Assembly: GCA_964512925.1 (NCBI GenBank)
Contig: CAZEKH010000001.1
Location: 136,226 to 200,225, forward strand
DNA length: 64,000 nucleotides
Direction of reading: 5' to 3'
Origin: an uncultured Candidatus Saccharibacteria bacterium
GTDB lineage: Bacteria > Patescibacteriota > Doudnabacteria > UBA920
Shown piece by piece: positions 40,400 through 61,002 of the stretch; the stretch's first letter is position 1; every line of letters starts with the position of its first letter. The notes below the pieces were generated by a model. The model had not been told where the DNA came from, did not search any database, and worked only from the letters and a program-made list of their open reading frames with translations. Both the position numbers and the translations under genes were made by a program.

Positions 40400-41005
40400 A
40401 AATATCACCCCCCAGCCCCCTCTTACTTTAAGAGGGGGAGGAGAAAAAAAGGCTCTAATTATTTTATAGAAATGATATTGTTCCGTCCCTCCCCTTAAGA
40501 TAAGGGGAGGTTAGGAGGGGATACTTTTTAGCGCATTTATTGTTTGCAGAATTTTTTCTCCTACGCCATCAATATTTTTAAATACATCAGTATTGTAAAA
40601 TCTTAATACAATAATATTTTGTTTATCTAAAAATTTAGTGCGGATTTCATCATTGATTTTATTTTGTATCTCTAAATGCTGTCCGCCGTCTAACTCAATA
40701 GCAAGTCTTAATTTTGAACAATAAAAATCCAAAATATAATTACCCACGCTATATTGCCGCGTAAATTTATAACCCGTTTGTCTGTTCCTTAAAATCTGCC
40801 AGAGTTTGTATTCTGCATCTGTTTGGTTGTTGCGAAGATTTTTTCTAAGTTGCTTTAACTGTGGGTGTTGGTAAAACATAAAGTATGAGTGAATATCACC
40901 CCCCAGCCCCCTCTCCTGCCAAAGGCGGGCAAGTATTTTAAGAGGGGGAGGTTATTTTTGCATTATCCCTCCCCTTAAGATAAGGGGAGGTTAGGAGGGG
41001 ATAGT
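40400..41005 (-). mobile_element. DUF559 endonuclease cassette bounded by ~110-bp direct repeats
   Basis: Direct repeats 40400-40510 and 40893-41005 (m1 ATCACCCCCCAGCCCCCTCT...TAAGAGGGGGAGG; m2 TCCCTCCCCTTAAGATAAGGGGAGGTTAGGAGGGGATA) flank the 369-bp ORF. Confidence 0.4.
40511..40879 (-). CDS. DUF559 endonuclease-domain protein (Vsr/restriction-endonuclease-like fold)
   Basis: YILDFYCSKLRLAIELDGGQH motif typical of DUF559. Confidence 0.75.
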   Translation of the reverse strand: MFYQHPQLKQLRKNLRNNQTDAEYKLWQILRNRQTGYKFTRQYSVGNYILDFYCSKLRLAIELDGGQHLEIQNKINDEIRTKFLDKQNIIVLRFYNTDVFKNIDGVGEKILQTINALKSIPS

Positions 41006-41013
41006 GTTTCGAA

Positions 41014-42975
41014 TTATAAACTCTTTTTTATAGTCTCTGCCAGTTTTTGCCCCACCACTTCAGCCAGTTCTTCCAATGATGAGTTTTTTATTTGGCTGAC
41101 TGTGCCGAATTTGGTTTTTAAGAGTTTTTTGGTTTTAGGCCCCACGCCCGGTATTTCGTCCAGCGCAGATTTAACGGCTTGCTTGCTTCTTAAGCTTCGG
41201 TGGAAAGTTATGCCAAACCTGTGGGCTTCGTCGCGAAGTCTTTGCAACATCTGAAGCCCGGGCTGATCGTGGCTTAAAACTATGGGAGTGGGATTGCCCG
41301 GTAAAAATATTTCCTCGATGCGTTTGGCCAAGCCGATCAAGGGTATAGGGCTAAGGGCTAAGGGTATAGACTCTATTTTTTCCAGCGCAGCGGATAGTTG
41401 GCCTTTGCCCCCGTCTATCACTATCAAATCCGGTATGGGCCAGAACTCCCCCGGCTTCGCCACCCCCTCTTTGGCAAAGAGGGGGGAGGGGGAGTTCGTC
41501 TGATTTACTGATCCACTGACCAAATGTCCCGACTTGGCTAGTCTTCTGCTTAGCATTTCCTGCATCATCTGGAAATCGTCCGGCGTGTCTTTTGTGCGGA
41601 TTTTAAATTTTCGGTATTCGGATTTTTTAGGCATTCCGCCCTCAAACACCACCATACTCCCGACCGCGTTAGTGCCCTGGGTGTTGGAGATGTCGTAACA
41701 TTCTATCCGCCTTGGGATATTTTTCAAATTCAAAACTTCTTTGAGTTGCTCCAATCCTGCATTTATCCTATCTAGCATAAAGGCTTCGGAAGACTGTTTT
41801 TGTTTGAGAAATTCCAAAGCGTTTTCTTCGGCTATTTTCCAGAGTTTTTGCGGTTGTTTTTGAATTGCTAAATTGATTTTAATAGTTTTGCCTGAGCGTT
41901 CTTTTAGTAAAGCTTCTAGAAGGTTTTGATTTTCAATTTTAGTTCCAGTATAAATTTTTTTCGGAAAATCCGAAGTCTTACTATAATAGTCCTCTAAAAA
42001 CCTTTGCAGCCCAGTTTCTTCCCCCCTTAAGATAAGGGGGGACTGAGGGGGGTTATGATGCAGAGTGGATTTGTAGACATTTGTAAATTTGTCTTTCATT
42101 TGTATATTTGAATTTTTGTAGACAAAATTTTCCTTATCTGCCAGTTTTCCTTGCCTGACTTTCAGTAGACTAAAAGAGATCTCCCCATTTGCTTGGCTTT
42201 GCCCGACAACATCCCAGGAAACTTTTTTAGGCATAATCACATTTTGCTTTTGTTCCAGAGATTCTAGGGATTTGATTTGGTTTCTAAGGCGCGCGGCTTT
42301 TTCAAAAAGTTTTTTAGCCGCGGCTTTTTGCATTTCTCTGGCAATTTCTTTTTTTACGCCTATTATGTCGCCTTGTAAAAATTTTTTAATTTTATCGAGA
42401 TGTTTTGCGTATTCTTCAAGGGTTATTGAGCCTATGCACACACCAGGGCAGCGGTGCAGATGAAAGTAAAAGCAAGGTTTTTGGCCAATTTTCTCATTGG
42501 CGCAATAGGAAAAGATGTAGCGGACAGTTTTAAGAATCTCTTTGGCTTTGTAAGCGGCGGAGTAGGGACCGAAAGAAGTAGGGCTAAGGGCTAAGGGTTT
42601 AGGGTGTAGGGATAGTTCAATATTTCTGGAAATGGTTATTTGGGGTATTTGTGTTGAGTAGTCAATGACAATAAACGCATAGCTCTTGTCGTCTTTTTGG
42701 AGGATGTTGTATTTGGGGCGGTATTTTTGGATCAGGGTTTGTTCCAGGTACAGGCTTTCAAGTTCAGTTGAAACTACTGTAAAGTCTAAGCTTTTTGCTT
42801 CCTGCATCAAGAAAGGAATTTGAGGTCTTTCATCTGTGCCACGGAAATACTGGCTAACTCGGTTTTTCAGGTCTTTGGCTTTACCCACATACAAAACCGC
42901 CCCGTCTTGGTCTTTGTAAATATAGACCCCGGGTTTTTTGGGGAGGCTTGGGAGGGTGAAACTTATTTTTTTCAT
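41014..42975 (-). CDS. uvrC: excinuclease ABC subunit C; start at internal Met MKKISF (the ORF track's upstream extension translates an intergenic hairpin)
   Basis: N-terminal GIY-YIG (GVYIYKDQDGAVLYVGKAKDLKNR), UvrBC interaction region, RNase-H-like endonuclease, C-terminal HhH. At least four in-frame repeat-derived insertions. Confidence 0.9.
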   Translation of the reverse strand: MKKISFTLPSLPKKPGVYIYKDQDGAVLYVGKAKDLKNRVSQYFRGTDERPQIPFLMQEAKSLDFTVVSTELESLYLEQTLIQKYRPKYNILQKDDKSYAFIVIDYSTQIPQITISRNIELSLHPKPLALSPTSFGPYSAAYKAKEILKTVRYIFSYCANEKIGQKPCFYFHLHRCPGVCIGSITLEEYAKHLDKIKKFLQGDIIGVKKEIAREMQKAAAKKLFEKAARLRNQIKSLESLEQKQNVIMPKKVSWDVVGQSQANGEISFSLLKVRQGKLADKENFVYKNSNIQMKDKFTNVYKSTLHHNPPQSPLILRGEETGLQRFLEDYYSKTSDFPKKIYTGTKIENQNLLEALLKERSGKTIKINLAIQKQPQKLWKIAEENALEFLKQKQSSEAFMLDRINAGLEQLKEVLNLKNIPRRIECYDISNTQGTNAVGSMVVFEGGMPKKSEYRKFKIRTKDTPDDFQMMQEMLSRRLAKSGHLVSGSVNQTNSPSPLFAKEGVAKPGEFWPIPDLIVIDGGKGQLSAALEKIESIPLALSPIPLIGLAKRIEEIFLPGNPTPIVLSHDQPGLQMLQRLRDEAHRFGITFHRSLRSKQAVKSALDEIPGVGPKTKKLLKTKFGTVSQIKNSSLEELAEVVGQKLAETIKKSL

Positions 42976-43677: not shown

Positions 43678-46584
43678 ATGGCTGATATCATTTCTATCCG
43701 CGGGGCGCGGATGCATAACTTAAAAAATATTGATGTAGATTTGCCTAGAAACAAGCTGGTGGTTTTAACCGGCCTGTCAGGCAGCGGCAAGTCGTCTTTG
43801 GCTTTTGACACCATCTATGCCGAAGGGCAGAGAAGGTATGTGGAAAGTTTGTCAGCTTATGCCAGACAGTTCATTGGTCTTATGGACAAGCCGGACGTGG
43901 ACAAAATAGAAGGTTTGTCCCCGGCAATTTCCATTGACCAAAAGTCCGCATCGCACAACCCTCGCTCTACTGTCGGAACCGTAACTGAAATTTATGACTA
44001 TATGAGGCTACTTTGGGCTCGTGTGGGAGTGCCTCATTGTCCGGTCTGCGGGAAAAAAATCCAAGGTCAAACTATCCAGGCAATGGCTGAGCAGCTTTTG
44101 GGTTTGGAAAAAGGCACAAGGCTGATGCTTTTGGCGCCTTTTATTAAAGATCAAAAAGGCGAACACCGGCATATATTTGAACAGATCAAAAAAGCCGGTT
44201 TTGCCCGCGTGCGTGTGGATGGCACAGTGATGGACTTAAACGAAGCCCAGGGTTTAAGCCTGGACAAGCAAAAAAAACATAATATAGAAGTGGTGGTGGA
44301 CCGCGTGGTGGTAGATCCGGCTGAACGGGGCAGACTCTCCGAGAGTCTGGAAAAGGCTGCGGATTTGGGCGATGGGATAGTTATAGCTTTGCGGGTTGCT
44401 GAAGAAACAAAACCTGACAGCAAGACGCGATCAACCTCTCCCCAGCCCTCCCCAAGTCTTGGGGAGGGAGGCTATAAGGAAATATTGCTCTCCCAAAAAT
44501 TCGCTTGTCCGGACGGACACATTCAGCTGTCTGAGCTGGACCCGAGGGATTTTTCTTTTAACAGCCCGCACGGAGCTTGTTCGGAGTGTAAGGGTTTGGG
44601 CACTAAGCTGACGGTGGAGCCGGATTTGGTTTTACCCAACCACCGGCTGACTTTGGCTGAAGGCGCTATCCGTCCCTGGAGCAAGACGACTTCCAGACAG
44701 TCCTGGTACTCGCGGATGCTGGAAGCCGTGGCCAAAGAATACGGTTTTTCCGTACACACTCCGGTGAAAGATTTGCCAAAAAAATATATTGATATTGTTT
44801 TGCACGGTTCAGGCGAGAAAAAAATCCGCATCTCCGGCGAGTTTAGGAGCGGCGACGGGGAGTTTGAGATGAACACGGTTTTTGAAGGCGTGGTGCCAAA
44901 CCTGGAGAGGCGGTACCGCGAGACTGACTCGGAATATATGCGCAGCGAAATAGAAAATTATATGCGCGTGCGCCAGTGTCAGGTTTGCCACGGCAAGCGC
45001 CTTAGGCTGGAAGTTTTGGCTGTGACCGTAGGCGGACAGGGGATAGTGGAGGTATCTGCTATGACTATAGACAAAGCCGCGGATTTTTTTGAAAAACTTT
45101 CCAAATCTTTGAGCGCCAAAGACAATCAGATTGCCAAACAAATTTTAAAGGAAATTTCCGCGCGTCTGTCTTTTTTGCTCAATGTTGGTTTGTCGTATTT
45201 GTCTTTGGACAGAACTGCGGATACTTTGTCCGGTGGGGAAGCCCAGCGCATCCGTTTGGCGACCCAGATCGGCAGCGGCCTGACCGGAGTTTTGTATATA
45301 TTGGACGAGCCATCTATCGGCCTGCATCAGCGCGACAACGGTAGACTCCTTAAAACATTGAAAGATTTAAGAGATTTGGGCAATACGGTGATAGTTGTAG
45401 AGCACGATGAGGAAACCATTCGCGAGGCGGATTGGGTGGTGGACATCGGACCAGGAGCCGGCAAGCACGGAGGCGAGCTGGTGGCGGAAGGTAAACCTTT
45501 GGATATTGAAAAAAATCCGAAAAGCATCACCGGGCAGTATTTGTCAGGAAAAGAATACATAGAAGTGCCGAAAAAAAGACGGCACGGCAACGGTAAAAAT
45601 ATTTCAGTTGTGGAAGCTTCTGAGTTTAACCTGAAAAATGTTACAGCCCAGATCCCGCTCGGCAAATTTGTCTGCGTAACCGGGGTGTCAGGTTCCGGCA
45701 AATCTACATTGATTTCTGACATTTTAGCCAGAGCGTTAAACAAACATTTTTGGGACAGCAAGGACGAACCAGGCAAGCATAAAAAGATCACGGGACTTGA
45801 ACACCTAGACAAAGTCATCAGCATTGACCAAAGCCCCATAGGCAGGACTCCGAGGTCAAACCCGGCTACTTACACCGGGCTGTTTACGCCGATCCGGGAG
45901 ATTTTTGCCGAAACCCGCGAAGCCAAGATGCGCGGCTATCAGGCTGGCAGGTTTAGTTTCAACGTCAAAGGCGGTCGTTGTGAGAAATGCGCCGGGGACG
46001 GGGTTTTGAAAGTCGAGATGAATTTTTTACCCGATGTCTATGTAACCTGCGAAGAGTGCAACGGCAAAAGGTATAACCGCCAGGCTTTGGAGATCCACTA
46101 TAAAGAAAAAACCATTTCCGATGTTTTGGAGATGACAGTTGACGAAGCAAAAACTTTTTTTGCAGCCGTGCCTGCCTTGCACAAAAAACTGGAAGTCTTG
46201 TCCCAGGTGGGCTTGGGCTATATGCGCCTGGGCCAGAACGCCACGACTTTGTCCGGCGGGGAAGCTCAGAGGATCAAACTTGCAACCGAACTGTCGCGCG
46301 CGTCTACCGGCCGCACTCTTTACCTTTTAGACGAGCCAACTACGGGCTTACATTTTGCGGACGTCAAACGTTTGATCCACGTTTTAAACAAACTGGTAGA
46401 CAAGGGCAACACTGTGGTGGTCATAGAACACAATCTGGATATGATCAAAACCGCGGATTGGCTTTTGGATATGGGTCCGGACGGGGGAGACAAGGGCGGA
46501 ACTATAGTTGCCGAAGGCACACCCGAAGATGTGGCAAAAGTCAAAGTTAGCTTTACCGGCCAATACCTAAAAAAGATTTTATAA
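43678..46584 (+). CDS. uvrA: excinuclease ABC subunit A
   Basis: Two ABC ATPase modules ([12 protein letters not shown]; [11 protein letters not shown]), zinc fingers and signature motifs. In-frame repeat insertion at 44430-44480 ([17 protein letters not shown]). Confidence 0.95.
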
Positions 46585-46605: not shown

Positions 46606-46633
46606 TATAATACCTTCATACACGACTGTATGA
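46606..46633. repeat. palindromic hairpin CTTCATACACGACTGTATGAAG; second copy at 47150-47178
   Basis: Identical hairpins flank the TrpR-like gene on both sides. Confidence 0.6.
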
Positions 46634-46657
46634 AGGTATTATTAATATACCAACAAA

Positions 46658-47149
46658 ATGACAAAGCTATCTAAAAGAAAATTAGACCCTGAGCATTTTG
46701 GGCACTATATAAATAATCTATGGTCAGCTTTTACTCTGCTAACCAGCAAGGAAGATATACGGCTTTTGTTTAAAGATATTTTTACCCATACGGAATATAA
46801 AATGTTTGCAAAACGATTGGAGATTGCTCGCCGTCTTTTAATGCAGGAGAGTTACGAGCAAATAGAAAAAGCATTAAATGTTACATCAAGGACTATTACC
46901 TCCGTAAATAATGTTCTTTCAGAAAAAGGGGATGGTTTTAGAAAAGTTCATGAAAAGTTTGAAAGAATTGAGGATGCTTATTGGAAGAAACAAAAAGAGA
47001 TCACGAAAAATTTGGAAAATCCTTTTCGGAAGAAAGCTCAAAGGAAAACTGTGGGCGGGGCGTTGCTCAAAGCCGGCGCCATAGCTTTAGACAAAGTAAT
47101 CGTCAAAAAGATAAAAGAAAAATCTGCAAAAAAATATTTAGATATATGA
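46658..47149 (+). CDS. TrpR-related YerC/YecD-family DNA-binding protein
   Basis: EYKMFAKRLEIARRLLMQESYEQIEKALNVTSRTITSV HTH region. Confidence 0.55.
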   Translation: MTKLSKRKLDPEHFGHYINNLWSAFTLLTSKEDIRLLFKDIFTHTEYKMFAKRLEIARRLLMQESYEQIEKALNVTSRTITSVNNVLSEKGDGFRKVHEKFERIEDAYWKKQKEITKNLENPFRKKAQRKTVGGALLKAGAIALDKVIVKKIKEKSAKKYLDI

Positions 47150-47475
47150 CACACCTTCATACACGACTGTATGAAGGTGTGGGTGGGGAAAGTGGGGGGT
47201 GGGTTGGTTTGTAGAATTGCCACAAAACTGACCAAATAAAGTTTGGATTTTAAATAATCCGCCTTAAATAAGGCGGATTATTTTTGCTATGGGGCTTGAT
47301 TTTTTTGAGGGTTTGTGTTAAAGTAACAAAGCTTTGAATGAGGAATCGACTAAACCTAAGGGTAAGGCCGATTTTTTGTTTGTTTGTCGCGGTGCAGGAG
47401 ATCTCGCACTACGGCAAAAAGCTGCGCCCGTCTCAAAAAGGCGGGTTAAGATTTCAGTTCACCAAGGAGAGGGAA

Positions 47476-48102
47476 ATGTCAGATTTTCGCAAGTTGTTTC
47501 TCGCGGCTTTCGCCGCGATTCTGATGTTCTGGGCGCCGCAGACTGCGTCGGCAGGTTTCGTGGACAATTTCGAATTGAACCCGAACGCTGGGGACGTGGG
47601 CGGTCTAGATGGTTCGAATACGATCTGGGTCGTCACGCCCACCCTGGACGTTGCGGGACCCATGTATGGAGGTCTCTCGTGCCACAGCGGCACGAGTTGT
47701 ATCGACATGGACGGCACTGGCCAGATGGCCGGCTCCCTCAAGACCATGTTCGCTACTATGGTTGGGGCGACTTACACCGCCAATTTCTGGATCGGGGGAA
47801 GTCAGCGCAACTTCCTTGGACCGGATGCGGTGACGGTGAATTTCGGGACCGCGATCCCACTGGTGGTCACGACGCCGCAAGGCGACACCAGCTGGACAAT
47901 GTACACAATGTCTTTCGTCGGTGATGGGAACAACCACTGGTTGGAATTTGTCGGTCAGGGAGCCGACAACGTCGGAGTGTTGCTGGACGACGTGGAACTG
48001 GCCGATAACTCGGTTCCGGAGCCCGCGACGTTCGCGTTGATCGGCGGAGGTCTGGTGCTTCTCGGCCTCAAACGCCGAGGTCGCAAGAACGCCAACAACT
48101 AG
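47476..48102 (+). CDS. secreted protein with C-terminal PEP-CTERM sorting signal; high GC (~60%)
   Basis: Start at Met preceded by GGAGAGGG SD (the ORF track's extension to 47338 is unlikely). Signal peptide. C-terminus VPEPATFALIGGGLVLLGLKRRGRK. Confidence 0.55.
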   Translation: MSDFRKLFLAAFAAILMFWAPQTASAGFVDNFELNPNAGDVGGLDGSNTIWVVTPTLDVAGPMYGGLSCHSGTSCIDMDGTGQMAGSLKTMFATMVGATYTANFWIGGSQRNFLGPDAVTVNFGTAIPLVVTTPQGDTSWTMYTMSFVGDGNNHWLEFVGQGADNVGVLLDDVELADNSVPEPATFALIGGGLVLLGLKRRGRKNANN

Positions 48103-48104
48103 TC

Positions 48105-48135
48105 CGCCCGCCCCGATGTCCATCGGGGCAGGCAA
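48105..48135 (+). terminator. hairpin / possible terminator
   Basis: GCCCCGATGTCCATCGGGGC. The same CCGATGTCCATCGG stem is used in the rpoC terminator. No T-run. Confidence 0.35.
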
Positions 48136-48289
48136 GGAGGACTAATCGCAATAAATTAGCCTGTTTCCCGCGTTCGGGCAGCAAGCAGGCTAATCGCTGT
48201 TTTTCGCACTCCCTAGCAGGACGGCGAAAAACACACGCAACAATGTTCGCTCGAGCCGCGACTCACTTCTGTGATCGCGGCTCTTTTCA

Positions 48290-49215
48290 TTTGTATAATT
48301 TTTTACATACTAATTAACTCCCCCAAGGCCCCCCGTCCGAACGCCCACGGCGGGCAGGCCTCTTTAAAAAAGAGGGGGGAATGAAGCGGGTAGGTTTGAA
48401 AAAGAGTGGAAAAAATATTACAGTCGTTGCAACCTCACCCCACCCCCTCTCCGATAGCGGAGAGGGGGAAGCGGATGCAAGATTCCAGCCGGAGTTTACC
48501 CCGATGAACATCGGGGCGGGAATGATACCTTTTCTATTTTTGTCATCCCCACATAACCGGGGATCTTGGTTTTTACCCTCTCCAATATGGGAGAGGGTGT
48601 CCCGATGAACATCGGGACGGGTGAGGTTTGAGCGATGGTGATAAAATATAAGTTGGTTTAATTTTCTAACATTGTTACCTCACCCCATCCCCCCGCCCGA
48701 ACGCCACAGGCGGGCAGGTCTCCCAAATGGGAGAGGGGGTAAAGAACGCATCATTCTCACCTAGTGGGAATGATATAGAAACGCGGAATGACGGAATATT
48801 TTTCCTATTTTCCCCAAGTTTCCCACATAGCTTTGCACAGGGGTTTTCCACTTTTGGGGGATAATTTTTGCTGTTTGTTGGGCTTTGACCAGAGGCAGGC
48901 TTTTGTGCCAAGATATAAAGACCACTTTTTACCCCCGTTAGAAGCAATCCGCCGTCAGGTGGATACCGAGCCTTTTTGTGCCCGGGCTTCTAACGGGGTG
49001 ATCTGGTTTGTGGGGACATTAACTCCCCCTGACCCCCTCTTTGAAAAAGAGGGGGAAATGAAAGGGGGTAGATTTGAAAAAGAGGGGAGAGGCTTAAAAT
49101 ATTACAATCATCGTAACCTCACCCCCCTACTTCGTTAAAACTTCGTAGGGCAAGCCAGCCCCCCGCCCGAACGCCCAAGCCGGGCAGGTCTCCGATAGCG
49201 GAGAGGGGAACTAAT
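48290..49215. repeat. ~0.9-kb non-coding repeat cluster
   Basis: Contains CCCTCTCC-loop-GGAGAGGG hairpins, CCGATGAACATCGG hairpins, CCCGAACGCC..GGCGGGCAGGTCTCC modules, a TGTCATCCCC..GGGGATC element and a 75-bp GGTGAGG..CCTCACC MITE-like unit. Confidence 0.7.
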
Positions 49216-50451
49216 TTGATATCTATGAATGAGCTGAAAATAAAAATTGAACAAGAGATTGTTAAAGCTTCCGGGATTTCTATCATCGGGCTTTTAAACG
49301 ACCTGGTGGAATACGCGGAAAGCCTCCGCGCTTCGGACATCCATATTGACCCGTACGAAAAAGATGTGCTGGTTCGTTTTCGCGTGGACGGGGTCTTGCA
49401 GGAGATATTCCGCTTGCCGAAAAATATCCATAGCGAAACAATCAGCCGCATCAAGATTTTGTGCGGCCTGAGGACTGACGAACATCAGGCGGCGCAGGAC
49501 GGACGCTTTCGGATGTTTTTTGATGTTGAAAAGAAAAAATTCATTGACGTCCGCGTGTCCGTGGTCCCAACTTACTTTGGCGAAAACGCGGTGATGCGTC
49601 TTTTGACTGACAAGGCCGAAGGTTTGTCTTTGGACGACTTGTATTTTTCCAAAGAAAACCAGAAAAAAATCCTTAAAGCCGCGCATAAGCCTTATGGGAT
49701 GATCTTAACTACCGGCCCTACGGGTTCGGGCAAAACCACCACGCTTTACGCGCTTATCAAGCTTTTACAGGGGCCAGAAATTTCTATCGTAACTATAGAA
49801 GACCCGATTGAGTACGCGATGCTGGGCATAGAGCAGATCCAGGTCAACTCCAGAACCAACTTAACTTTTGCCCAGGGACTTCGCGCCATCCTCAGGCAGG
49901 ACCCAAACATCATAATGGTTGGCGAAATCCGCGACTCAGAAACTGCCGGGATAGCGGTTAATACGGCGCTTACTGGACATTTGCTTTTGTCCACTCTTCA
50001 TACCAATGACCCGGCTACCACTCTGCCCAGGCTTTTGGATATGGGAATAGAGAGCTATCTGGTTGCCTCCACTGTTAACTTGGTTATCGGTCAGAGATTG
50101 GTTAGAAAAATTTGCGAGAGCTGCAGAGTAGTAAAAAAATTCACCCCTGCTGAAACCAAAAGTTTGTCCGAACATATCCCTTTAAAAATCTTAAAAAAAT
50201 TTAAACACTTCTATCAAGGTACCGGCTGCGATGAATGTAACAACACCGGGTATAAAGGCAGGGTGGCGCTGCACGAGGTGTTGGAAGTTGATGATCATAT
50301 CCGCGAGTTGATTTTGAAAAAAGCTTCCGCAACGGAGATCCGCCATCAGGCTTTTGAAAAAGGCACGGTGGCTATGGGAATGGATGGTCTTTTAAAAGCC
50401 GGGCAAGGCCTGACCACGGTGGAAGAGATACTCAGGATAAGCCATGAGTAG
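49216..50451 (+). CDS. pilB: type IV pilus assembly ATPase, GspE/PilB family (short form)
   Basis: Walker A GPTGSGKTTT, Asp and His boxes, C-terminal tetracysteine CESC...CDEC. Confidence 0.8.
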   Translation: MISMNELKIKIEQEIVKASGISIIGLLNDLVEYAESLRASDIHIDPYEKDVLVRFRVDGVLQEIFRLPKNIHSETISRIKILCGLRTDEHQAAQDGRFRMFFDVEKKKFIDVRVSVVPTYFGENAVMRLLTDKAEGLSLDDLYFSKENQKKILKAAHKPYGMILTTGPTGSGKTTTLYALIKLLQGPEISIVTIEDPIEYAMLGIEQIQVNSRTNLTFAQGLRAILRQDPNIIMVGEIRDSETAGIAVNTALTGHLLLSTLHTNDPATTLPRLLDMGIESYLVASTVNLVIGQRLVRKICESCRVVKKFTPAETKSLSEHIPLKILKKFKHFYQGTGCDECNNTGYKGRVALHEVLEVDDHIRELILKKASATEIRHQAFEKGTVAMGMDGLLKAGQGLTTVEEILRISHE

Positions 50452-50517: not shown

Positions 50518-50895
50518 TAATTTGCTGTCATCCCGGCCTTGAGCCGGGATCCAGGGTTATATGCAAAACGAATGTTATGTATACATCCTTGCAAACAAAA
50601 GAAACGGAACACTGTATGTGGGAGTGACCAATGACTTAATAAGAAGAGTTTATGAACATAAAAATGATTTAACAGAAGGCTTTACTAAAAAGTACCAGAT
50701 ACACACTTTAGTCTATTTTGAAAATACAGGAAATATAGAAAGCGCAATAAAAAGAGAAAAACAGTTAAAAAGATGGCAAAGACAATGGAAAATATCCCTT
50801 ATTGAAAAACAAAATCCGCAGTGGAATGAGTTATACTCTAACTTGACTTAACCCTGGATCCCGGATATCCGCCTAAGGCGGATTCCGGGATGACA
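50518..50895 (+). mobile_element. GIY-YIG gene bounded by inverted hairpin repeats
   Basis: Left TGTCATCCCGGCCTTGAGCCGGGATCCAGGGTT (50521-50553). Right AACCCTGGATCCCGGATATCCGCCTAAGGCGGATTCCGGGATGACA (50840-50887). Both are members of the same element family, in opposite orientation. Confidence 0.4.
50561..50851 (+). CDS. small stand-alone GIY-YIG nuclease (UPF0213-like) inserted between pilB and pilC
   Basis: CYVYILANKRNGTLYVGVTNDLIRRVYEHKN. Confidence 0.7.
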   Translation: MQNECYVYILANKRNGTLYVGVTNDLIRRVYEHKNDLTEGFTKKYQIHTLVYFENTGNIESAIKREKQLKRWQRQWKISLIEKQNPQWNELYSNLT

Positions 50896-51023: not shown

Positions 51024-52142
51024 ATGTTTAATTTAAAAATTCAAAAAAACACACCTGAACTAGTTACTTCTCCGTCGTTTTTTACCCGCCTTGTTGAAGG
51101 TTCCATCTCCCGCTCGGAGCAGGTGCAGTTTGCAAAGAGGCTGGCTTTTTTGATGCGCGCGGGAGTGCCGATTTTAGAGAGCCTGCAGATTTTGGCCGGG
51201 CAGTCTAAGACTAAAGGCGGCAAAAAAATGTTAGAGAATTTGGTGTCAGAAGTTTCCAACGGGCATTTTTTGTCTACCGCAATGGCTAAGTTTTCTTCCG
51301 TGTTTGGTGACTTTGCGGTCAACATTGTCAAAGTCGGGGAACAGGCTGGCATCTTGCCTGAGAATTTAAACTATTTGGCGGAGGAGCTGAAAAAAAAGCA
51401 GGCGCTGAGAAAAAAAGTGATGGGCGCTTTGTTTTACCCGATATTTATAGTGGTGGCCACGCTTTTGTTGGTGGGACTTTTAACTGTCGTGGTGTTTCCT
51501 AAAGTTTTACCCATCTTTACCAGTATCAATGTGCCTTTGCCTGTTAGCACAAAAATTCTAATGTCAGTCAGCCGGTTTCTCATAGCTTATGGATTTTGGG
51601 TGTTGATTTTGATATTGATTTTTCCCTTCGCTCTTTTGTTTTTATCCCGCTTGCCTAAAGTCAAAGCCTGGCTGGATAAAGTTTTGCTGAAAATTCCGTT
51701 AGCCGGTAGCATTGCCCAGAACTATTATTTGGCTAACTTTTGCCGGACTATGGGACTGCTACTCAAAGGCGAGTCGCGCCTTGACGAAGCTTTGCAGACT
51801 TCCGCGCGTACCACGCAAAATATGGTTTACAGAAAGCAGCTGGAAAACCTGGCGCAGACTGTAGCGAAAGGCAGTAGGATGTCCGAGTATATGCTGAAAA
51901 ACAAAAAATATTTTCCGGATATGGTGTCTCATATGTTGGCCGTGGGGGAAACCGCGGGCAACCTAAGCGAGAGTTTTATGTATCTGGCGGATATGTACGA
52001 AACCGAGGTAGATGACCAGACAAAAAATTTATCTACTCTCATTGAGCCGGTTTTGATGGTGTTTATGGGCCTGTTGGTCGGTTTTGTTGCGATTTCCATC
52101 ATCACCCCAATTTATTCGGTTACCCAGAAATTACATCCATAA
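51024..52142 (+). CDS. pilC: type IV pilus inner-membrane platform protein PilC (GspF family)
   Basis: Two T2SSF repeats and three TM segments. Confidence 0.85.
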   Translation: MFNLKIQKNTPELVTSPSFFTRLVEGSISRSEQVQFAKRLAFLMRAGVPILESLQILAGQSKTKGGKKMLENLVSEVSNGHFLSTAMAKFSSVFGDFAVNIVKVGEQAGILPENLNYLAEELKKKQALRKKVMGALFYPIFIVVATLLLVGLLTVVVFPKVLPIFTSINVPLPVSTKILMSVSRFLIAYGFWVLILILIFPFALLFLSRLPKVKAWLDKVLLKIPLAGSIAQNYYLANFCRTMGLLLKGESRLDEALQTSARTTQNMVYRKQLENLAQTVAKGSRMSEYMLKNKKYFPDMVSHMLAVGETAGNLSESFMYLADMYETEVDDQTKNLSTLIEPVLMVFMGLLVGFVAISIITPIYSVTQKLHP

Positions 52143-52265
52143 TGCCCCTCTCCGAGCACGGAGACCTGCCCGCCGTGGGCGTTCGGGCGGGGGGTTAGGG
52201 TGAGGTAACAGTGTTTGAATATTAAATAAGCTTAAATTTTATTACCATCGCTTAAACCTCACCCC
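52142..52265. repeat. composite repeat including a 75-bp MITE-like element (GGTGAGGTAACAG...TTAAACCTCACC)
   Basis: Near-identical copy at 52870-52990. Related copies at 48610-48683 and 58930-59005. Confidence 0.7.
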
Positions 52266-52311
52266 AGCCCTCTCCCATATAGGAGAGGGAGTAAAAACAT
52301 TTCTGACAATT

Positions 52312-52797
52312 ATGATCAATTCTGCGCAATCTAAAAACGGGTTTACCCAACACCATTTTTTTTTAGAAAAAAATAGTGCTGGGTTTACCCTCATAGAAGT
52401 TTTGGTTTCAATGGGTATACTGGCAATGCTGGGGACTTTGGGACTGGTGTTTGGGTTGGATTTTTATCGGGCGTATGCTTTTAACTCGGAAAGGGATTTG
52501 GCGGTGGGGATTTTACAAAAAGCGCGCAGTCGCAGTTTGGCTAACATTAACCAAACAACTCACGGAGTTTGTATTATAGGTTCTAAATATATTTTGTTTG
52601 AGGGTGCTTTAAATTGCGATCCGAACAATTCAGCCAATGAAGTTTATGATGCAAACCCAGGCGTTTCAAATTCGGGACTACAAATTGTTTTTCAGCAGCT
52701 TTCCGGTAGGCCGAATTCTGTTGGTTCTGTAACATTAACTTCGGGCGTGAGATCTTCGGTTATTAACATTAACGCTGAGGGGATGGTGGAGTGGTAA
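52312..52797 (+). CDS. pseudopilin / minor pilin (prepilin-type N-terminal cleavage/methylation domain)
   Basis: KNSAGFTLIEVLVSMGILAMLG class III signal. Confidence 0.7.
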   Translation: MINSAQSKNGFTQHHFFLEKNSAGFTLIEVLVSMGILAMLGTLGLVFGLDFYRAYAFNSERDLAVGILQKARSRSLANINQTTHGVCIIGSKYILFEGALNCDPNNSANEVYDANPGVSNSGLQIVFQQLSGRPNSVGSVTLTSGVRSSVININAEGMVEW

Positions 52798-53056
52798 AAT
52801 AATTTAAGATTAAAGATTAAAGATTGAAGATTTAAACAATACGTTTTTATTTTATATGTATGAGTTTTTTCAAATCCCCCTCTCCACTCTCGGAGAGGGT
52901 TAGGGTGAGGTAACAGTGTTTGAATATTAAATAAGCTTAAGTTTTATTACCATCGCTTAAACCTCACCCCTTCCCTCTCCCATATGGGAGAGGGAGTGAA
53001 AAATCAAAAAAAATAGGGTTGAGATAATGTAAAAAAAATGCTAAACTAAGGCGCAA

Positions 53057-54526
53057 ATGAAAATATCAGGAAAAAAAATAAATACCCAGGCAGGCGGCAG
53101 CACGGTTGAGCTAATGGTGGCTTTGTTCGTGTTTGTCGTGTGTTTAGCCGGCATCATTGCCGTGGTTTTTGGCAACCAGTTTTTGTCCGTGGATACGGAG
53201 ATGAACGGAACTGCCATAGCCAAAGCCCAGGAGCTTTTGGATGAAAAGCGTAACGACGCAAGAACGAACTTTAACGGCGTGGTAGCCGGGGTTTCTACTG
53301 ACGGACAATTTACTAAGACAGTGGCAGTCAACAATCTTAACCAATGCCAAAAGGAAGTAACAAGTGAAGTTTCCTGGAACGACGGCACACGCTTACAAAA
53401 AGTTTCTTTAACTACTTTGATCAGCAACACTGACGAGCTCGTGGCGGTCAGCGGAGTTTGCTCAAACCAAAATGGTTTTTCTGGCCTTACTTGCCCCAGT
53501 ACATCGTCTTATTCGGATTGGAATTTTACTTTGCCTGGCGGCGGGACAGTTAAGTCTATGTTTGTGACTAGTAGAATTGTAAGTCTGGCGGTAGACCCTT
53601 CCGGCACGGCAATAACAGATTTTGACTATCTTAGGTTTACAGTTTCTTCTGGTTTAGTATTTAACAATGGAACATTTACAAGAACTCCTTCCGGCGTACG
53701 CACTTCGTCCGGCGGTTTAAACGGCGTAACATATGACAACTCAAAAACTTATGCGTATGGCGCTGGCAAGTGGAGTGGCGCAGGACAAGTGCAGATCATC
53801 AATGCCGACGCAACAAGACCAGGGGGAATGTATGCCATAGCCTTTGTCCTCGATAGTAACACTCAGGACGCTTTAAGCATATTTTTTAGGGACAATAAAA
53901 TTTACATAGGGACAAAAAATAACCCCTCAGGTCCTGAGCTTTATATCATCGACGTTACGAGCCCGGAGTCAGCTCAGATTTTAGCTACCAAAGAGATTGG
54001 CGCGGATGTAAAAAAGATTGTTGTTAGGGGGAGTTTGGCTTACTTAGCAACTTCGGACCCAAGCGCGGAAGCGCGGGTTTATGATATTGGGCAAGTCAAA
54101 AGTATTGCTTTGCCAGGCGTGATCAATTTTGTTGGAAATTTCAATGCCAGTTTGCTTTCCGGTGCCAACAGTTTGGCGGTTTTGGGCGCTACTGTGTTTT
54201 TGGGCGGCAGTGGCGCAAATAATTTTTATGAAATAAATACTTTAAACGCTTCTTCAATGTCTGAGATTACGCATCAACCGATAGGCGGGAGCATAAACGA
54301 CCTTTCCGCCAGCGGCAACCTGGCATATCTCGCCACTGACGGCGCCAATGTTTCAGGCAAGGAGCTTGAACTGTTAAATTACGCGGATATAAGTAGTCCT
54401 CAAACCTGTGCCATTGGTTCGGAAGACTTGCCAGCCTCGGCTTCGGCCGTGGTGTTAGATGGGGGATGGGTGTATGTGGGAATGAATGCTTCAAACAAAC
54501 CGTTGAGGATATATAAGTTTCAGTAG
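53057..54526 (+). CDS. pilin-like protein fused to an LVIVD-repeat beta-propeller domain (candidate pilus-tip adhesin)
   Basis: N-terminus AGGSTVELMVALFVFVV (G-x4-E prepilin-like). C-terminal half has repeated LYIIDVTSPES / ARVYDIGQV / LAYLATxD motifs resembling LVIVD repeats. Confidence 0.55.
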   Translation: MKISGKKINTQAGGSTVELMVALFVFVVCLAGIIAVVFGNQFLSVDTEMNGTAIAKAQELLDEKRNDARTNFNGVVAGVSTDGQFTKTVAVNNLNQCQKEVTSEVSWNDGTRLQKVSLTTLISNTDELVAVSGVCSNQNGFSGLTCPSTSSYSDWNFTLPGGGTVKSMFVTSRIVSLAVDPSGTAITDFDYLRFTVSSGLVFNNGTFTRTPSGVRTSSGGLNGVTYDNSKTYAYGAGKWSGAGQVQIINADATRPGGMYAIAFVLDSNTQDALSIFFRDNKIYIGTKNNPSGPELYIIDVTSPESAQILATKEIGADVKKIVVRGSLAYLATSDPSAEARVYDIGQVKSIALPGVINFVGNFNASLLSGANSLAVLGATVFLGGSGANNFYEINTLNASSMSEITHQPIGGSINDLSASGNLAYLATDGANVSGKELELLNYADISSPQTCAIGSEDLPASASAVVLDGGWVYVGMNASNKPLRIYKFQ

Positions 54527-54585
54527 ATTACATTTTAGATTCCCTCTCCAAGTGTTGGAGAGGGCTAGGGAGAGGTTGAATTATA

Positions 54586-55083
54586 ATGAGTTATAAATTA
54601 CAAAACCAAAATTTAACTCCCCCTAACCCCTCTTTGAAAAAGAGGGGTGAAGAAGCTGGGTTTACCCTGCTCGAGACTTTGCTTTATATCGCCCTCCTGT
54701 CTTTTTTTCTCGCGAGTTTGGTGGGTATCACTTATCAGTCTTTGGATTCAGCCGGGCAGATTGGCCGAAAAATTGCCATTCAGCAGGAAGCTAACTTTAT
54801 ACTTAGAAAAATGGACTGGGCTATAACCGGTGCTTCGGACATCACCGGAACTGCGGATCATTTAACAATCACAAGGACTGTTTCGCCTACTTCAGTTGAA
54901 TTTATCTCAGATACTCTAAACAAAGGTATGGACATCAAAGCCGAGCTTGGCCAGATGAAGTTAAACAGCAGTAACGTCAAAGTGGAAAATGTAAATTTTG
55001 TCATATCCGGCAGTCCGAAAAAAGTCGTAGCCAGTTTTGATATTAACGGAGAAAATTTTAGTTTGACTAGGTATTTGAGGTAA
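54586..55083 (+). CDS. pseudopilin / minor pilin
   Basis: EAGFTLLETLLYIALLSFFLASL. Confidence 0.7.
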   Translation: MSYKLQNQNLTPPNPSLKKRGEEAGFTLLETLLYIALLSFFLASLVGITYQSLDSAGQIGRKIAIQQEANFILRKMDWAITGASDITGTADHLTITRTVSPTSVEFISDTLNKGMDIKAELGQMKLNSSNVKVENVNFVISGSPKKVVASFDINGENFSLTRYLR

Positions 55084-55096
55084 CCGTTAGAGACTT

Positions 55097-55795
55097 ATGG
55101 AATATACTTATATTTTAAAAAGTAAAAAAGACGGTAAAATGTATACAGGTCTGACCAGTGATCTACGGAAGCGTTTTAAGGAGCATAATGAAGGTTTGGT
55201 TCCTTCTACAAAGAATAGAGGGCCATTTAAGATAATTTATTATGAAGCTTGTGTAAATAGACAAGATGCCGCAAGTAGAGAGATTTTTTTAAAAACTGGT
55301 ATGGGAAAGAGATATATAAAAAATCGTTTAAAACGCTTCCTGTCTCTAACGGCTCAAAGAGATAGTGCTAGCACCGTTATAAACAGCTTGCCAAAGTCAA
55401 GCGAAGTTTTTAACGGTGGATATATCGCTTTAACTTCCGTCATCATCGTTTCTTTATTGCTCCTGACTGTCATCACCGCTTTAAGCTCTGTTAACTATTT
55501 TTCCCGTTACAACATATTGGAAAACGAATATAAGGACAGAAGTTTTGCTTTGGCTGAAGGCTGTGTGGATTATGCTATAGGAAGACTGGCGGGAAATAGT
55601 AATTACATCGGTAATGAAACAGTAAACATCGGAGTCGGAACTTGTCAGGTGGCGTCAGTTTCTTCCGGGGCTTTTCCTAAAACTATCAGCACTGTCGGAA
55701 TTTTTCCACCCACGGCTGCAAAAAAAAGTTATACCAAACTTCAGGCAGTTGTAAGTTCAAGTTTCGCCATCAGTTCTTTTATAGAAAATCCATAA
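55097..55795 (+). CDS. GIY-YIG nuclease domain fused in frame to a pilin-like hydrophobic C-terminal half (possible insertion-generated fusion)
   Basis: First ~90 aa are GIY-YIG (YTYILKSKKDGKMYTGLTSDLRKRFKEHN). The remainder has GGYIALTSVIIVSLLLLTVITAL and an internal TTG that could start a separate minor-pilin ORF. Confidence 0.5.
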   Translation: MEYTYILKSKKDGKMYTGLTSDLRKRFKEHNEGLVPSTKNRGPFKIIYYEACVNRQDAASREIFLKTGMGKRYIKNRLKRFLSLTAQRDSASTVINSLPKSSEVFNGGYIALTSVIIVSLLLLTVITALSSVNYFSRYNILENEYKDRSFALAEGCVDYAIGRLAGNSNYIGNETVNIGVGTCQVASVSSGAFPKTISTVGIFPPTAAKKSYTKLQAVVSSSFAISSFIENP

Positions 55796-56112
55796 ATATG
55801 CTTGTCATTCCCTTGGCAAAGGGAATCTTGTACCCTCTCCCTCTCCGAGAGACGGGGATCTGCCCGCCTTGGGCGTTCGGGTGGGGGTAGGGGTGAGGTT
55901 ACGGATTTGATAAAATTAAAGATATTTAAATATGTAATATTAACCCCTGGATCCCGGATATCCCGCGAAGCGGGATTCCGGGATGACAGCAAAAATTTTT
56001 TGGAAAGATTGAATTTTGAACATTGAATCAAGATATTTCTAAAAAACCAACCGCCTTTACAAAAGGCGGATATAAAATTATAATTAAGCCATAAATATTA
56101 AATCATTAAAAT

Positions 56113-56625
56113 ATGAAAAAGTTTCTTAAAAAATCCCAAGGATTTACATTGATTGAAATCCTGGTAGTCATCGGTATCATCGCGGTGTTGGCAACCATTG
56201 TCATCATCGCCATTAACCCCGCCCGCCAGTTTGCCCAGTCAAGGAACACTCAGAGGACGGCCAATGTCCAGGCAATTTTAAATGCGGTAGGGCAGAGGAT
56301 TGCGGATAACAAAGGTGTGTTTGCCGGCACAGTAGGAGCCCAAACTTGTCCAAATTTAACCACCTCCGGAGCAAATGCCTTAACTGCTGGCACTGCTTAT
56401 AAAATAAAGGCTCCTGCAGTACTGGCAAGTAATGAGATTGATTTATCGTGTCTGGTTACAACTTATATTCCTTCTTTTCCTTATGATCCAAGCGATGCAG
56501 CTGCAGCGTGGACAAGCACAGCCGCTTATAATACCGGGTATACAATAGCAATTGATGCGAGCGGAAGAGCTACGGTAGCCGCGCCTACTGCTGAATTAGG
56601 AACGACTATTTCAATCACCCGCTAA
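56113..56625 (+). CDS. pilA: type IV major pilin
   Basis: MKKFLKKSQG|FTLIEILVVIGIIAVLATIVI canonical prepilin leader and N-terminal helix. Confidence 0.8.
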   Translation: MKKFLKKSQGFTLIEILVVIGIIAVLATIVIIAINPARQFAQSRNTQRTANVQAILNAVGQRIADNKGVFAGTVGAQTCPNLTTSGANALTAGTAYKIKAPAVLASNEIDLSCLVTTYIPSFPYDPSDAAAAWTSTAAYNTGYTIAIDASGRATVAAPTAELGTTISITR

Positions 56626-56638
56626 AATTTTATTTTAT

Positions 56639-56676
56639 ATCCAGCCTCGATGTTTACGGGGCTGGATTTTTTGTTT
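56639..56676 (+). terminator. Rho-independent terminator of pilA
   Basis: ATCCAGCCTCG-atgtttac-GGGGCTGGAT followed by TTTTTTG. Confidence 0.8.
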
Positions 56677-56702
56677 CAAAAATGGTATAATAGATATGCA
56701 AA

Positions 56703-56996
56703 TTGATAAACTTTATTATGCAAAAAACTTTACCTGCATTTTTAAAACCTGTTGTTTGGTGGGCTAAGTTTGATGATTTGGATATTGAAAAAGACAAGGG
56801 AACTATTATTGCGCACATATTAAATACCGGAGATACAAAGGCCACAGACTGGATGAAATCTGTATATAAAGAACAAGATATTAAACAGGTTTTACTTGAA
56901 AAAAGACCAGGTTTTTGGGATAAAAAATCTTTAAATTTTTGGTCATTGGTTTATGGAGTAATGCCGAATTTTAATCAGATGCGCCAGATAAAATAA
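56703..56996 (+). CDS. hypothetical protein, candidate antitoxin partner of the downstream AbiEii-like gene
   Basis: 97-aa ORF ending 2 nt before the next start. Assignment by position only. Confidence 0.35.
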   Translation: MINFIMQKTLPAFLKPVVWWAKFDDLDIEKDKGTIIAHILNTGDTKATDWMKSVYKEQDIKQVLLEKRPGFWDKKSLNFWSLVYGVMPNFNQMRQIK

Positions 56997-56998
56997 CT

Positions 56999-57619: not shown

Positions 57620-57627
57620 AATATAAA

Positions 57628-57668
57628 AAAAAACACCTTTTCACTGTTGTGAAGAGGTGTTTTTTTGT
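57628..57668 (+). terminator. Rho-independent terminator
   Basis: CACCTTTTCAC-tgttgt-GAAGAGGTG followed by T7. Confidence 0.75.
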
Positions 57669-57790
57669 ATTGATTTTTTGTTGACATTTGCCGGAAAATG
57701 GAGTAAATTTGTATATTGCGCTAGCCTTTTTCAGCCCCAAGTGCACGGCGGCTGGGAATGGTAATCTAAGGCGCGATTTAGGAGGTTGCC

Positions 57791-60963: not shown

Positions 60964-61002
60964 GAACAATCCCTTCCCAAAAATGGGAGGGGATTTTGGT
61001 AT

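Follow-up and report, generated by a model that had tools for sequence, protein, structure and literature searches.

What are the hairpin-rich spacers that follow two GC-rich genes for secreted proteins in this genome? The larger occupies positions 48290-49215 of the window, by which we mean the whole 64 kb stretch of DNA that was analysed (43% GC, 24% of it non-coding), and the other lies at 58775-59095. The original prediction had drawn attention to their similarity and offered three candidate explanations: a structured non-coding RNA (ncRNA) family, a satellite or nest of miniature inverted-repeat transposable elements (MITEs), or a recombination module that moves with the adjacent GC-rich gene. 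Very probably, both clusters are nests of very small, non-coding, GC-rich palindromic repeats that are spread through the ~43% GC genome of a member of the candidate phyla radiation (CPR). They are nests of BoxC/triplex-motif repeats and nested mini-hairpins, similar to bacterial interspersed mosaic elements (BIMEs), and represent a lineage-specific expansion. This identity is more ordinary than first proposed, and among the three candidates the satellite or MITE nest was essentially right.

The two clusters are indeed paralogous. In self-BLAST, a unit termed B is 93% identical over 129 bp between 48559-48686 and 58873-59001 (E=1e-49), and a unit termed A is 90% identical over 94 bp between 48432-48525 and 58992-59085 (E=8e-32). 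The order of the units is A, a delta hairpin, B at the first locus, and B, A at the second. The original prediction had seen in this the circular permutation of a tandemly repeated or rolling unit. The change of order is real, but A and B are separate modules; because they share a junction made up of a tag and a hairpin, the apparent permutation requires no tandem or rolling unit. The three hairpins and the 75 bp element that had been described could all be located. The hairpin CCCTCTCC-N-GGAGAGGG (beta) is found at 48443-48468, 48575-48598, 58891-58912 and 59005-59026, and the hairpin GTCCCGATGAACATCGGGAC (gamma) at 48599-48618 and 58914-58933; the delta hairpin GTCATCCCCACATAACCGGGGATC (48542-48565) has the GGGGATC tail as its 3' arm. 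The '75 bp element' with terminal inverted repeats (48619-48686) consists of GGGTGAGGT, an AT-rich core and ACCTCACCCC. Both clusters are predicted to fold into RNA structures far more stable than those of shuffled sequences (z-scores of -8.45 and -7.29). They were said to be non-coding, and none of the six open reading frames (ORFs) within them has a Pfam match.

The original prediction treated the two loci as a pair. The similarity between them is real, but they do not hold the only copies: about 40 of these short modules are scattered through the entire window, and they fill most spacers of the type IV pilus operon. The window contains 65 perfect GC-rich hairpins, compared with 1-6 in block shuffles, and 47 of the 65 fall in the non-coding 24%. 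The tag, ACCTCWCCCY, occurs 19 times in the window against an expectation of 0.31. The dominant module reads CCCTCYCC, loop, GGRGAGGG, 2-4 nt, GGGKGAGGT (that is, CCCTCTCC-loop-GGAGAGGG-TTA-GGGTGAGG), in which the tag mirrors the purine arm of its hairpin, as the third, mirror-symmetric strand of a triplex motif. Minor modules are alpha (CCGCCCGAACGCC..GGCGGGCAGG), gamma (CCCGATGAACATCGGG) and delta (GTCATYCCC..GGGRATC); the zeta hairpin and the hairpins flanking a DUF559 gene (see below) are triplex-type motifs of different sequence.

The modules are combined in a recurrent element of 130-210 bp, composed of one or more hairpins, GGGTGAGGT, an AT-rich core of ~50 bp, ACCTCACCCC, and again one or more hairpins. 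Two triplex motifs face each other over the core, giving an inverted dimer that resembles a MITE or a REPIN (a dimer of repetitive extragenic palindromes, REPs). Terminal inverted repeats surround a non-coding core at 48575-48738 and 58891-59029 in the clusters and at two places elsewhere: 52145-52297, where a full element fills the spacer between pilC and a pilin gene, and 52873-53000, where a full element consists of a triplex motif (TM), core, tag and beta hairpin. The junction of ACCTCACCCC and a hairpin is repeated in both of these elements, as well as in an inverted dimer overlapping the start of a pilin-like ORF (54542-54648), in another following a GIY-YIG/pilin-like ORF (55832-55990), and in a half element on the plus strand with core, tag and beta hairpin (59594-59650).

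Read on the other strand, the main module is, by its sequence, the repeat known as BoxC, PIT or TM(ECO), which could form an intrastrand triplex of the purine-motif type. Holder et al. 2015 (PMC4666352) give the TM(ECO) consensus as CCCTCNCCC-N3-6-GGGNGAGGG-N3-GGGNGAGGG. The window has nine sites that fit this consensus with no more than one substitution per block, compared with none in 20 shuffles, and in several of them the second loop is TTA, the type A of the published motif. In cluster 2, the sequence at 58775-58806 fits the consensus directly. The mirror symmetry of blocks 2 and 3 is evident by inspection in GGAGAGGG-TTA-GGGTGAGG (52888-52906) and in GGGGAGG-TTA-GGAGGGG (40504-40520). 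The motif in unit B has a 20 nt hairpin nested in its second loop. TM-type copies at 4804, 30195 and 44435 are inside ORFs.

The likeness to BoxC/PIT/TM(ECO) extends from the order of parts (C-rich arm, loop, G-rich arm, 3 nt loop that is often TTA, mirror G-rich block), with near-identical sequence, to the behaviour of the family: both are multi-copy and dispersed, have variable loops and conserved stems, sometimes form palindromic pairs, differ sharply in copy number among close relatives and are associated with variable regions. Earlier work on these repeats is reportedly due to Bergler, to Bachellier, and to Hoyne and Maher. We know of no established origin, function or mobilising enzyme for BoxC/PIT/TM elements, which have been on record since the 1990s. 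The census of Holder et al. counted 3610 TM(ECO) motifs in 262 proteobacterial genomes and noted that G/C-rich motifs are abundant in cyanobacteria too; the triplex forms in vitro, and the motif is linked to variable regions (PMC4666352). Our findings differ from the published picture in four respects. The host range takes in Patescibacteria, further phyla and viral contigs; the E. coli motif is 'always intergenic', whereas several copies in the window are in frame in essential genes; the motifs in the window form the ends of 130-210 bp inverted dimers with an AT-rich core and host nested mini-hairpins; and the second loop of unit A has 4 nt.

Modules are also found inside one another. A 19 nt hairpin in the loop of 40892-40950 is missing from the paralogue 40401-40440, and an extra hairpin in the loop of 30900-30953 is missing from its sister copy 30183-30231. 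The 26 nt alpha insert is lodged in the arm of a beta or a zeta hairpin, and its place differs between the paralogues 48314-48470 and 49019-49213. Gamma is nested within the delta loop in unit A and within the second loop of the triplex motif in unit B; the gamma-in-delta composite recurs in two unrelated JGI contigs (L162 and L165). Comparison of paralogues, and of UvrA sequences, revealed no target-site duplication at the nested or intragenic insertions examined.

Several copies are in frame within genes and add 10-17 residues to the product, with P, S, G and E abundant among them. The module in uvrA (44431-44483, plus strand) encodes a 16-residue insert that is missing from the 81% identical UvrA of a relative (L135, see below), and two modules in uvrC (41450-41496 and 42018-42061, minus strand) encode inserts of ~14 and 17 residues relative to UvrC of the same genome. 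Others are found in ychF (30183-30231, minus strand; the sister copy is 30900-30953), tsaD (8997-9038), a gene for a class I aminoacyl-tRNA synthetase (4367-4413 and 4804-4840) and a glmM-like gene (33604-33651). For other repeat families, REPs within repair genes, uvrA among them, are already on record (PMC3733652).

Comparison with relatives points to a gain of the modules in this lineage. One relative (GCA_964474825.1, L135) has the same order rnj, SBP5, uvrC, uvrA, pilB, pilC, pilins, yet contains no modules in 21 kb; its pilus genes abut or overlap, with near-zero spacers, and the spacer orthologous to 52145-52297 is ~2 bp. Three others, whose PilB is 77% identical (L132-L134), have one or two modules only. 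As with TM(ECO), the modules mark variable regions: they are missing in syntenic L135 and nearly so in L132-L134. The family is multi-copy, dispersed, nested, partly in frame in genes and missing at the orthologous sites of relatives. We picture the modules as selfish DNA that would be copied into new sites without target-site duplication, and that would accumulate where insertion is harmless, here in the DNA that separates a PEP-CTERM gene's terminator from the transcription unit behind it. Their effects in cis would be limited to those of strong hairpins, in DNA or RNA, and of local rearrangement hotspots.

Several observations weigh against this reading. The A and B copies that match best (90-93%) are exactly the two behind PEP-CTERM-family genes; since the most similar copies are held by these two loci, a historical link between them is possible, and the sequences may reflect an old duplication or gene conversion. 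The relatives are only 68-81% identical at the protein level, so that the absence of modules there could in principle mean loss rather than gain; neither a presence/absence polymorphism within one population nor a target-site duplication was found. Pfam scans of ~60 ORFs in the window detected no transposase, REP-associated tyrosine transposase (RAYT) or other certain mobilising enzyme, but only DUF559 and GIY-YIG nucleases. An exploratory tblastn search for RAYT and IS200 TnpA in 1.56 Mb of module-bearing loci also gave no match, but is a weak test. The unit A copies at 48432-48468 and 58992-59029 fit the TM consensus only if a 4 nt second loop is allowed. Finally, Holder et al. found TM(ECO) without association to mobile elements (PMC4666352).

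The hairpins might instead serve the host as RNA-level cis elements (punctuation, 3' stabilisers, terminators or RNase sites) that tune the pilus genes, in the manner of the REP/BIME hairpins of E. coli. They are present in nearly every spacer of the pilus operon, their predicted RNA folds are very stable, and complementarity of the stem is maintained, with pairing at the variable position (CCCTCTCC/GGAGAGGG versus CCCTCCCC/GGGGAGGG) in 127 of 129 copies compared across phyla; moreover, Di Nocera et al. argue for transcription of most REPs (PMC3733652). We nevertheless regard this explanation as unlikely. In the nearest syntenic relatives the same operon lacks the hairpins and its spacers measure 0-5 bp, copies occur in coding regions and in both orientations, and both large clusters lie past terminator-like hairpins. 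In E. coli, earlier work found neither promoter nor terminator activity for PIT/BoxC (PMC4666352). Promoter-like hexamers in two paralogous cores had raised the idea of a mobile promoter, which was abandoned: promoter-like sites in the element cores are not enriched, with 23 found between 50400 and 59800 against 18 expected.

The original prediction was correct in placing each cluster downstream of a gene for a secreted protein and a hairpin. The two genes belong to PEP-CTERM families, and the hairpins (48253-48292 and 58684-58712) are terminator-like. Each cluster begins past such a hairpin and therefore occupies one of the two largest permissive spacers, of 1122 and 619 bp. Could the cluster be part of a recombination or mobility cassette that carries the GC-rich PEP-CTERM gene? 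It is true that each of the two largest clusters sits behind such a gene, that the A and B copies most alike are those of these two clusters, that the first gene looks foreign (GC content at third codon positions, GC3, of 0.73), and that other small accessory genes (DUF559, trpR-like) are bracketed by repeated hairpins. Yet sequence inspection revealed no modules upstream of 47476-48102 or 57791-58582, and self-BLAST no similarity between the 3' untranslated regions of the two genes. in L132, GC-rich PEP-CTERM genes occupy the two corresponding sites, one ahead of pilB and one behind the last pilin gene, and there are no clusters; a homologue of the PEP-CTERM gene (P0003) lies in an ordinary diderm locus free of modules; and most module copies adjoin ordinary pilus or housekeeping genes. 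That the cluster moves with the gene is unsupported, because relatives have PEP-CTERM genes at the same two positions without clusters. We consider a cassette improbable, and the proximity of the clusters to the GC-rich genes is best read as positional, not mechanistic. The two PEP-CTERM genes of L132 (L132:9174-9743 and 16574-17197) are unrelated in sequence to those of the window.

A free-standing family of structured ncRNAs, another of the candidates, is if anything slightly more improbable. The predicted structure is strong and there is a weak resemblance to the whalefall-1 motif, but at 18.8 bits this match, the best in the clusters and located at the BoxC/TM-type motif of 58775-58807, is far from the gathering score of 37. 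In gathering mode, Rfam identified only two tRNAs in the whole window, and in E-value mode both clusters and 52130-53010 gave chance-level matches only. Furthermore, the modules are shuffled, nested and inverted, occur in both orientations and are inserted into ORFs, and they are not consistently framed by promoters and terminators. The whalefall-1 consensus itself (RF01762; UCUCUCC..GGAGAGA..AGGGUGAGGAC) resembles the BoxC/TM motif at 58773-58808, and its sequence suggests that this metagenomic 'RNA motif' may be a DNA repeat of the BoxC/TM kind. Guide-RNA arrays of the clustered regularly interspaced short palindromic repeat (CRISPR) or TIGR-Tas type, for which one might cite the CPR host and the stem-loops that TIGR arrays can form (PMC12045711), can be dismissed as extremely improbable, as the original prediction had already done for CRISPR: the program TRF found no tandem array or regular periodicity in either cluster, Pfam scans found no Nop/Tas or Cas gene among ~60 ORFs, and the units are dispersed singly.

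The modules invite comparison with other families of small bacterial repeats. They share with REPs, BIMEs and REPINs (PMC3733652; Bertels & Rainey 2011, PMC3116915) hairpins of 20-40 nt with an unpaired conserved tag, the inverted dimers, the mosaic intergenic clusters, the occasional in-frame copies in DNA-repair genes including uvrA, and the lack of target duplication. The tags differ, being GTAG or CGTC in REPs and ACCTCWCCCY/GGGKGAGGT in the window. A REP family is usually confined to one species or genus, whereas the motif in the window is common to many phyla; and RAYT, a Y1 HUH transposase, is flanked by its repeats, whereas no Y1 transposase was found among ~60 ORFs of the window. Bacterial MITEs (Correia/NEMIS, ERIC, Nezha) are similar in being 130-210 bp long and intergenic, with terminal inverted repeats and an AT-rich non-coding interior. 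They differ in having target-site duplications and a parent insertion sequence (IS) with the same ends, neither of which was found for the modules; the window contains no IS. In addition, the 'terminal inverted repeats' here are independent hairpin modules. The Rickettsia palindromic elements are in-frame palindromic repeats in housekeeping genes of a reduced, host-dependent bacterium, but they are unrelated in sequence and 100-150 bp long, compared with inserts of 40-50 nt here, and the clusters are extragenic; the likeness is one of analogy only. A possible parallel is provided by the small dispersed repeats (SDRs) of Nostoc, which Elhai et al. 2008 (Genome Res 18:1484, a paper cited in PMC3733652) are said to have described as ~20-30 nt repeats nested in repeats or hairpins and without a known transposase; host and sequences differ from those of our modules.

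The exact 34 nt pattern ACCTCWCCCY-N2-3-CCCTCYCC-N4-6-GGRGAGGG is found in >120 species-representative genomes from many phyla, including Bacteroidota, Cyanobacteriota, Patescibacteria, Pseudomonadota, Chloroflexota and Verrucomicrobiota, against ~0.03 matches expected by chance (a hand estimate that assumes uniform base composition). The pattern is carried by 33 viral contigs as well, and by 216 plasmids, on which it is unannotated. In three viral contigs two beta modules are 2 kb apart, but the interval contains ordinary phage head-tail genes with the modules between genes, and is not an autonomous element. Similarly, a beta-like module on Klebsiella and Aeromonas plasmids is not an IS end: it sits in passenger DNA between ISApu1 and ISApu2, outside their inverted repeats. 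The papers searched gave no link of REPs or MITEs with Patescibacteria, and their only matches to the motif sequence were V5-tag primers.

DUF559 proteins are very widespread, are annotated as 'endonuclease domain-containing protein' and have no known function (examples are E. coli YcjD and PDB entry 3HRL). The window encodes one such nuclease of the PD-(D/E)xK, Vsr-like type at 40511-40879 (minus strand; PF04480, E=1e-32; PDB 3HRL, E=2e-20), and the repeats bracket it: within the region 40401-41009, the gene is placed between direct repeats of two triplex-type hairpins, 40401-40529 and 40892-41009 (families D6 and D7). The stop codon of this ORF lies within the TTA/TAA loop of a triplex motif.

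The association recurs elsewhere. Loci were fetched for their beta or gamma DNA motif alone, and tblastn with the window protein then found DUF559 genes in 10 of ~120 beta-selected and 4 of 29 gamma-selected loci. In the 10 beta-selected loci, the gap between DUF559 gene and motif was 1, 8, 20, 64, 82, 88, 189, 314, 1270 and 2863 bp, that is, <100 bp in six and <320 bp in eight. A Saccharibacteria locus (L069) has a DUF559 gene exactly between inverted tag-plus-hairpin ends: upstream are a hairpin, TT, GGGGAGAGGT, 7 nt and the ATG, and downstream the stop codon TAA, 4 nt, ACCTCTCCCT, AA and a hairpin. Conversely, we picked ten DUF559 genes by protein similarity only, from Sphingomonas, Neisseria, Synechocystis, Azospirillum, Pseudanabaena, Deinococcus, Picosynechococcus, Sinorhizobium, Photobacterium and E. 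coli. Perfect homopyrimidine/homopurine hairpins built on the same grammar stand beside the ORF in seven of the ten, and related imperfect ones at the other three; for several of these genes the hairpins are direct repeats on both sides. The density of such perfect hairpins is 3.5 per kb in the DUF559 flanks compared with 0.02 per kb in 102 kb of control loci, a ~175-fold difference, although the DUF559 samples are small.

Because motif bracketing of DUF559 genes recurs across phyla, we consider it possible, if somewhat doubtful, that DUF559 is the missing partner enzyme of the BoxC/PIT/TM repeats. The motif-bracketed gene would then be the autonomous element and the scattered motifs its non-autonomous derivatives, a pairing that would parallel that of RAYT and REP. 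Alternatively, the DUF559 nuclease could be a passenger that homes into the motifs. The idea of a partner enzyme has to contend with ~1,500 E. coli genomes that, at megablast level, have the repeat but no ycjD: among 5426 complete genomes, ycjD was found in 3378 and the repeat in 4907. These counts were made separately and by themselves speak neither for nor against the idea. In one E. coli locus (L212:825-960), a degenerate TM-like repeat lies directly behind ycjD, an accessory gene that encodes a DUF559 protein; the median number of places occupied by this repeat family is 10 per genome. A query with a single protein found no DUF559 relatives in viral contigs. A link between DUF559 and these repeats is not mentioned in the titles and abstracts listed for those of the searched papers that name DUF559, nor in the main text of PMC4666352.

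The identification of BoxC/triplex-motif repeats and nested mini-hairpins thus accounts for a puzzling, ncRNA-like paralogous cluster and removes the suggested link with PEP-CTERM genes. It means that a streamlined CPR genome carries a dense load of probably selfish palindromes, ~1 perfect GC-rich hairpin per kb, with expanded operon spacers. Gene calling and protein alignments are affected by the modules, and so is assembly, because short-read unitigs break at the repeats. The interest of the system rests on the in-frame colonisation of essential genes, the identity of the motif across phyla, and the association with DUF559; the recurrent coupling of DUF559 and motif across phyla makes both the origin of BoxC/TM repeats and the function of DUF559 directly testable.

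The anatomy of the first cluster, described here on the plus strand, is as follows. It is preceded by the 3' region of the first PEP-CTERM gene (48104-48292), which contains a gamma-type hairpin, GCCCCGATGTCCATCGGGGC (48110-48129), and two more hairpins; the terminator-like hairpin at 48253-48292, recognised by inspection of the sequence, is GAGCCGCGA..TCGCGGCTC followed by TTTTCATTT. Element E1 (48314-48470) comprises TTAACTCCCCC, an alpha insert (48328-48362) within the 5' arm of a zeta hairpin, an AT-rich core, the tag ACCTCACCCC (48432-48441) and a beta hairpin (48443-48468). Its paralogue is 49019-49125, with 81% identity over 90 bp to 49036-49125 in self-BLAST. The tag and beta hairpin of E1 are also the beginning of unit A (48432-48525), in which they form a BoxC/TM-like motif with a 4 nt second loop; a reverse delta hairpin, GATTCC..GGGAATGA, follows, with a gamma hairpin (48499-48516) in its loop. 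The delta hairpin GTCATCCCCACATAACCGGGGATC, annotated at 48540-48571, belongs to repeat family D10, which has 5 copies in the window. Unit B (48559-48686) contains a beta hairpin (48575-48598), gamma (48599-48618) in the second loop of the triplex motif, GGGTGAGGT, the AT-rich core and ACCTCACCCC; in self-BLAST it is 84% identical to the reverse complement of 52145-52264. It is followed at 48688-48738 by a beta hairpin with the 26 nt alpha insert in its arm, CCCC/CCGCCCGAACGCC..GGCGGGCAGG/TCTCC..GGAGAGGGG (families D8, D13 and I1), which is 85-86% identical to 7943-7999 and 49155-49208 in self-BLAST.

The central segment of the cluster (48740-49018) contains a delta-like hairpin (48750-48774) and a long hairpin, ACCCCCGTTAGAAGC..GCTTCTAACGGGGT (~48930-49000); it has no second copy in the window by self-comparison and no Pfam or Rfam match, and its folding z-score is -4.1. 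The last element, E3 (49019-49213), consists of TTAACTCCCCC, a triplex-type zeta hairpin (49033-49055), an AT-rich core, a tag (49116-49125), an extra hairpin and an alpha/beta module (49158-49208), and ends 12 bp upstream of pilB.

The second cluster, also on the plus strand, has at its left end (58775-58807) the BoxC/TM-type motif CCCTCCCC-TTGAG-GGGGAGGG-TTA-GGGAGAGGT, which matches the TM(ECO) consensus. Next, at 58819-58885, comes a delta hairpin whose loop holds another hairpin of ~35 nt; this segment is 82% identical to the reverse complement of 24186-24252. Units B and A are contiguous over 213 bp (58873-59085), in the order beta, gamma, the inverted tag, AT-rich core, tag, beta, and reverse delta with gamma in its loop. 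This stretch has a predicted fold energy of -110 kcal/mol (z = -8.45).

According to Pfam scans, the window includes rpoC, genes for aminoacyl-tRNA synthetases, tsaD, ychF, RNase J, uvrC and uvrA, and it encodes a Gram-positive-style type IV pilus operon and sortases. The first gene of the pilus operon, pilB/gspE (49225-50451, plus strand; PF00437, E=1e-118), encodes an ATPase whose closest named relatives are from Candidatus Doudnabacteria (Patescibacteria/CPR). The gene before cluster 1 (47476-48102, plus strand; GC 0.59) encodes a PEP-CTERM/choice-of-anchor-C secreted protein that matches PF07589 with 25.6 bits (cutoff 20.7) and TIGR02595 with 20.5 bits (cutoff 16). It has 5 homologues only, and one of them, 47% identical, sits in a diderm-type genome context. 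The gene before cluster 2 (57791-58582, plus strand) lies between a promoter-like site (57681-57709) and the terminator at 58684-58712. Its product gives no match to PEP-CTERM models and its C-terminal motif is degenerate; it belongs to a family of ~245-residue proteins with 64 homologues. Because most of the 12 family members inspected end in xPEP-TM-RRR, 'PEP-CTERM-like' seems a fair description of its sequence.

Logan unitigs from the same samples (SRR14271332/35) are 100% identical to the window over 47475-48619 and 52911-58934. These unitigs are independent of the contig, and the junctions between genes and clusters are therefore no assembly artefact. A unitig break at 47475 might have been taken for a cassette junction, but it is only the k-1 overlap with the adjacent unitig and is uninformative.

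A number of minor observations concern the surroundings of the pilus operon. PEP-CTERM-family genes, usually found in diderms and dependent on exosortase, are present on both sides of the operon in this Patescibacteria genome, and the second is followed by sortases and an LPXTG protein (59677-62985). Between the last pilin gene and the second PEP-CTERM-family gene lies a DUF6922/AbiEii (type IV toxin-antitoxin) pair (56703-57619; GC 0.31-0.33), which is missing in L132 and L135. The 64 kb contain four ORFs for GIY-YIG nucleases (50561-50851, 55097-55795, 12899-13129 on the minus strand, and 15488-15703); two are within the pilus operon, and one forms the N-terminal part of a fusion with a minor-pilin-like protein. 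A GIY-YIG::pilin fusion is also present in L132, at a different position. At 54542-54660, a repeat element encodes the leader at the N-terminus of a pilin-like protein (ORF 54586-55083). With a TTG that lies in the zeta hairpin loop, the leader would read MKKRGEEAG/FTLLE; the annotated ATG is preceded at a distance of 9 nt by the tag GGGAGAGGT, in a Shine-Dalgarno-like placement.

Upstream of the first PEP-CTERM gene, a trpR-like gene of low GC content (46658-47149) lies between perfect 26 bp direct hairpin repeats (46612-46637 and 47153-47178). The gene, absent from L135, resembles a cassette whose insertion duplicated the uvrA terminator. Two further GC-rich islands (0.55-0.58), at 29196-29628 and 3321-3752, are both followed by repeat modules; one has no convincing ORF, and the other encodes a 143-residue signal-peptide protein with no Pfam match. 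In L135, a stretch of 1.84 kb free of ORFs (L135:15319-17212) lies between 27 nt inverted repeats downstream of a GC-rich gene. The gamma hairpin CCCGATGAACATCGGG is also found at the helix tips of apparent RNase P RNA and of tRNA-like and tmRNA-like genes in five metagenome contigs (L140, L143, L149, L153 and L157).

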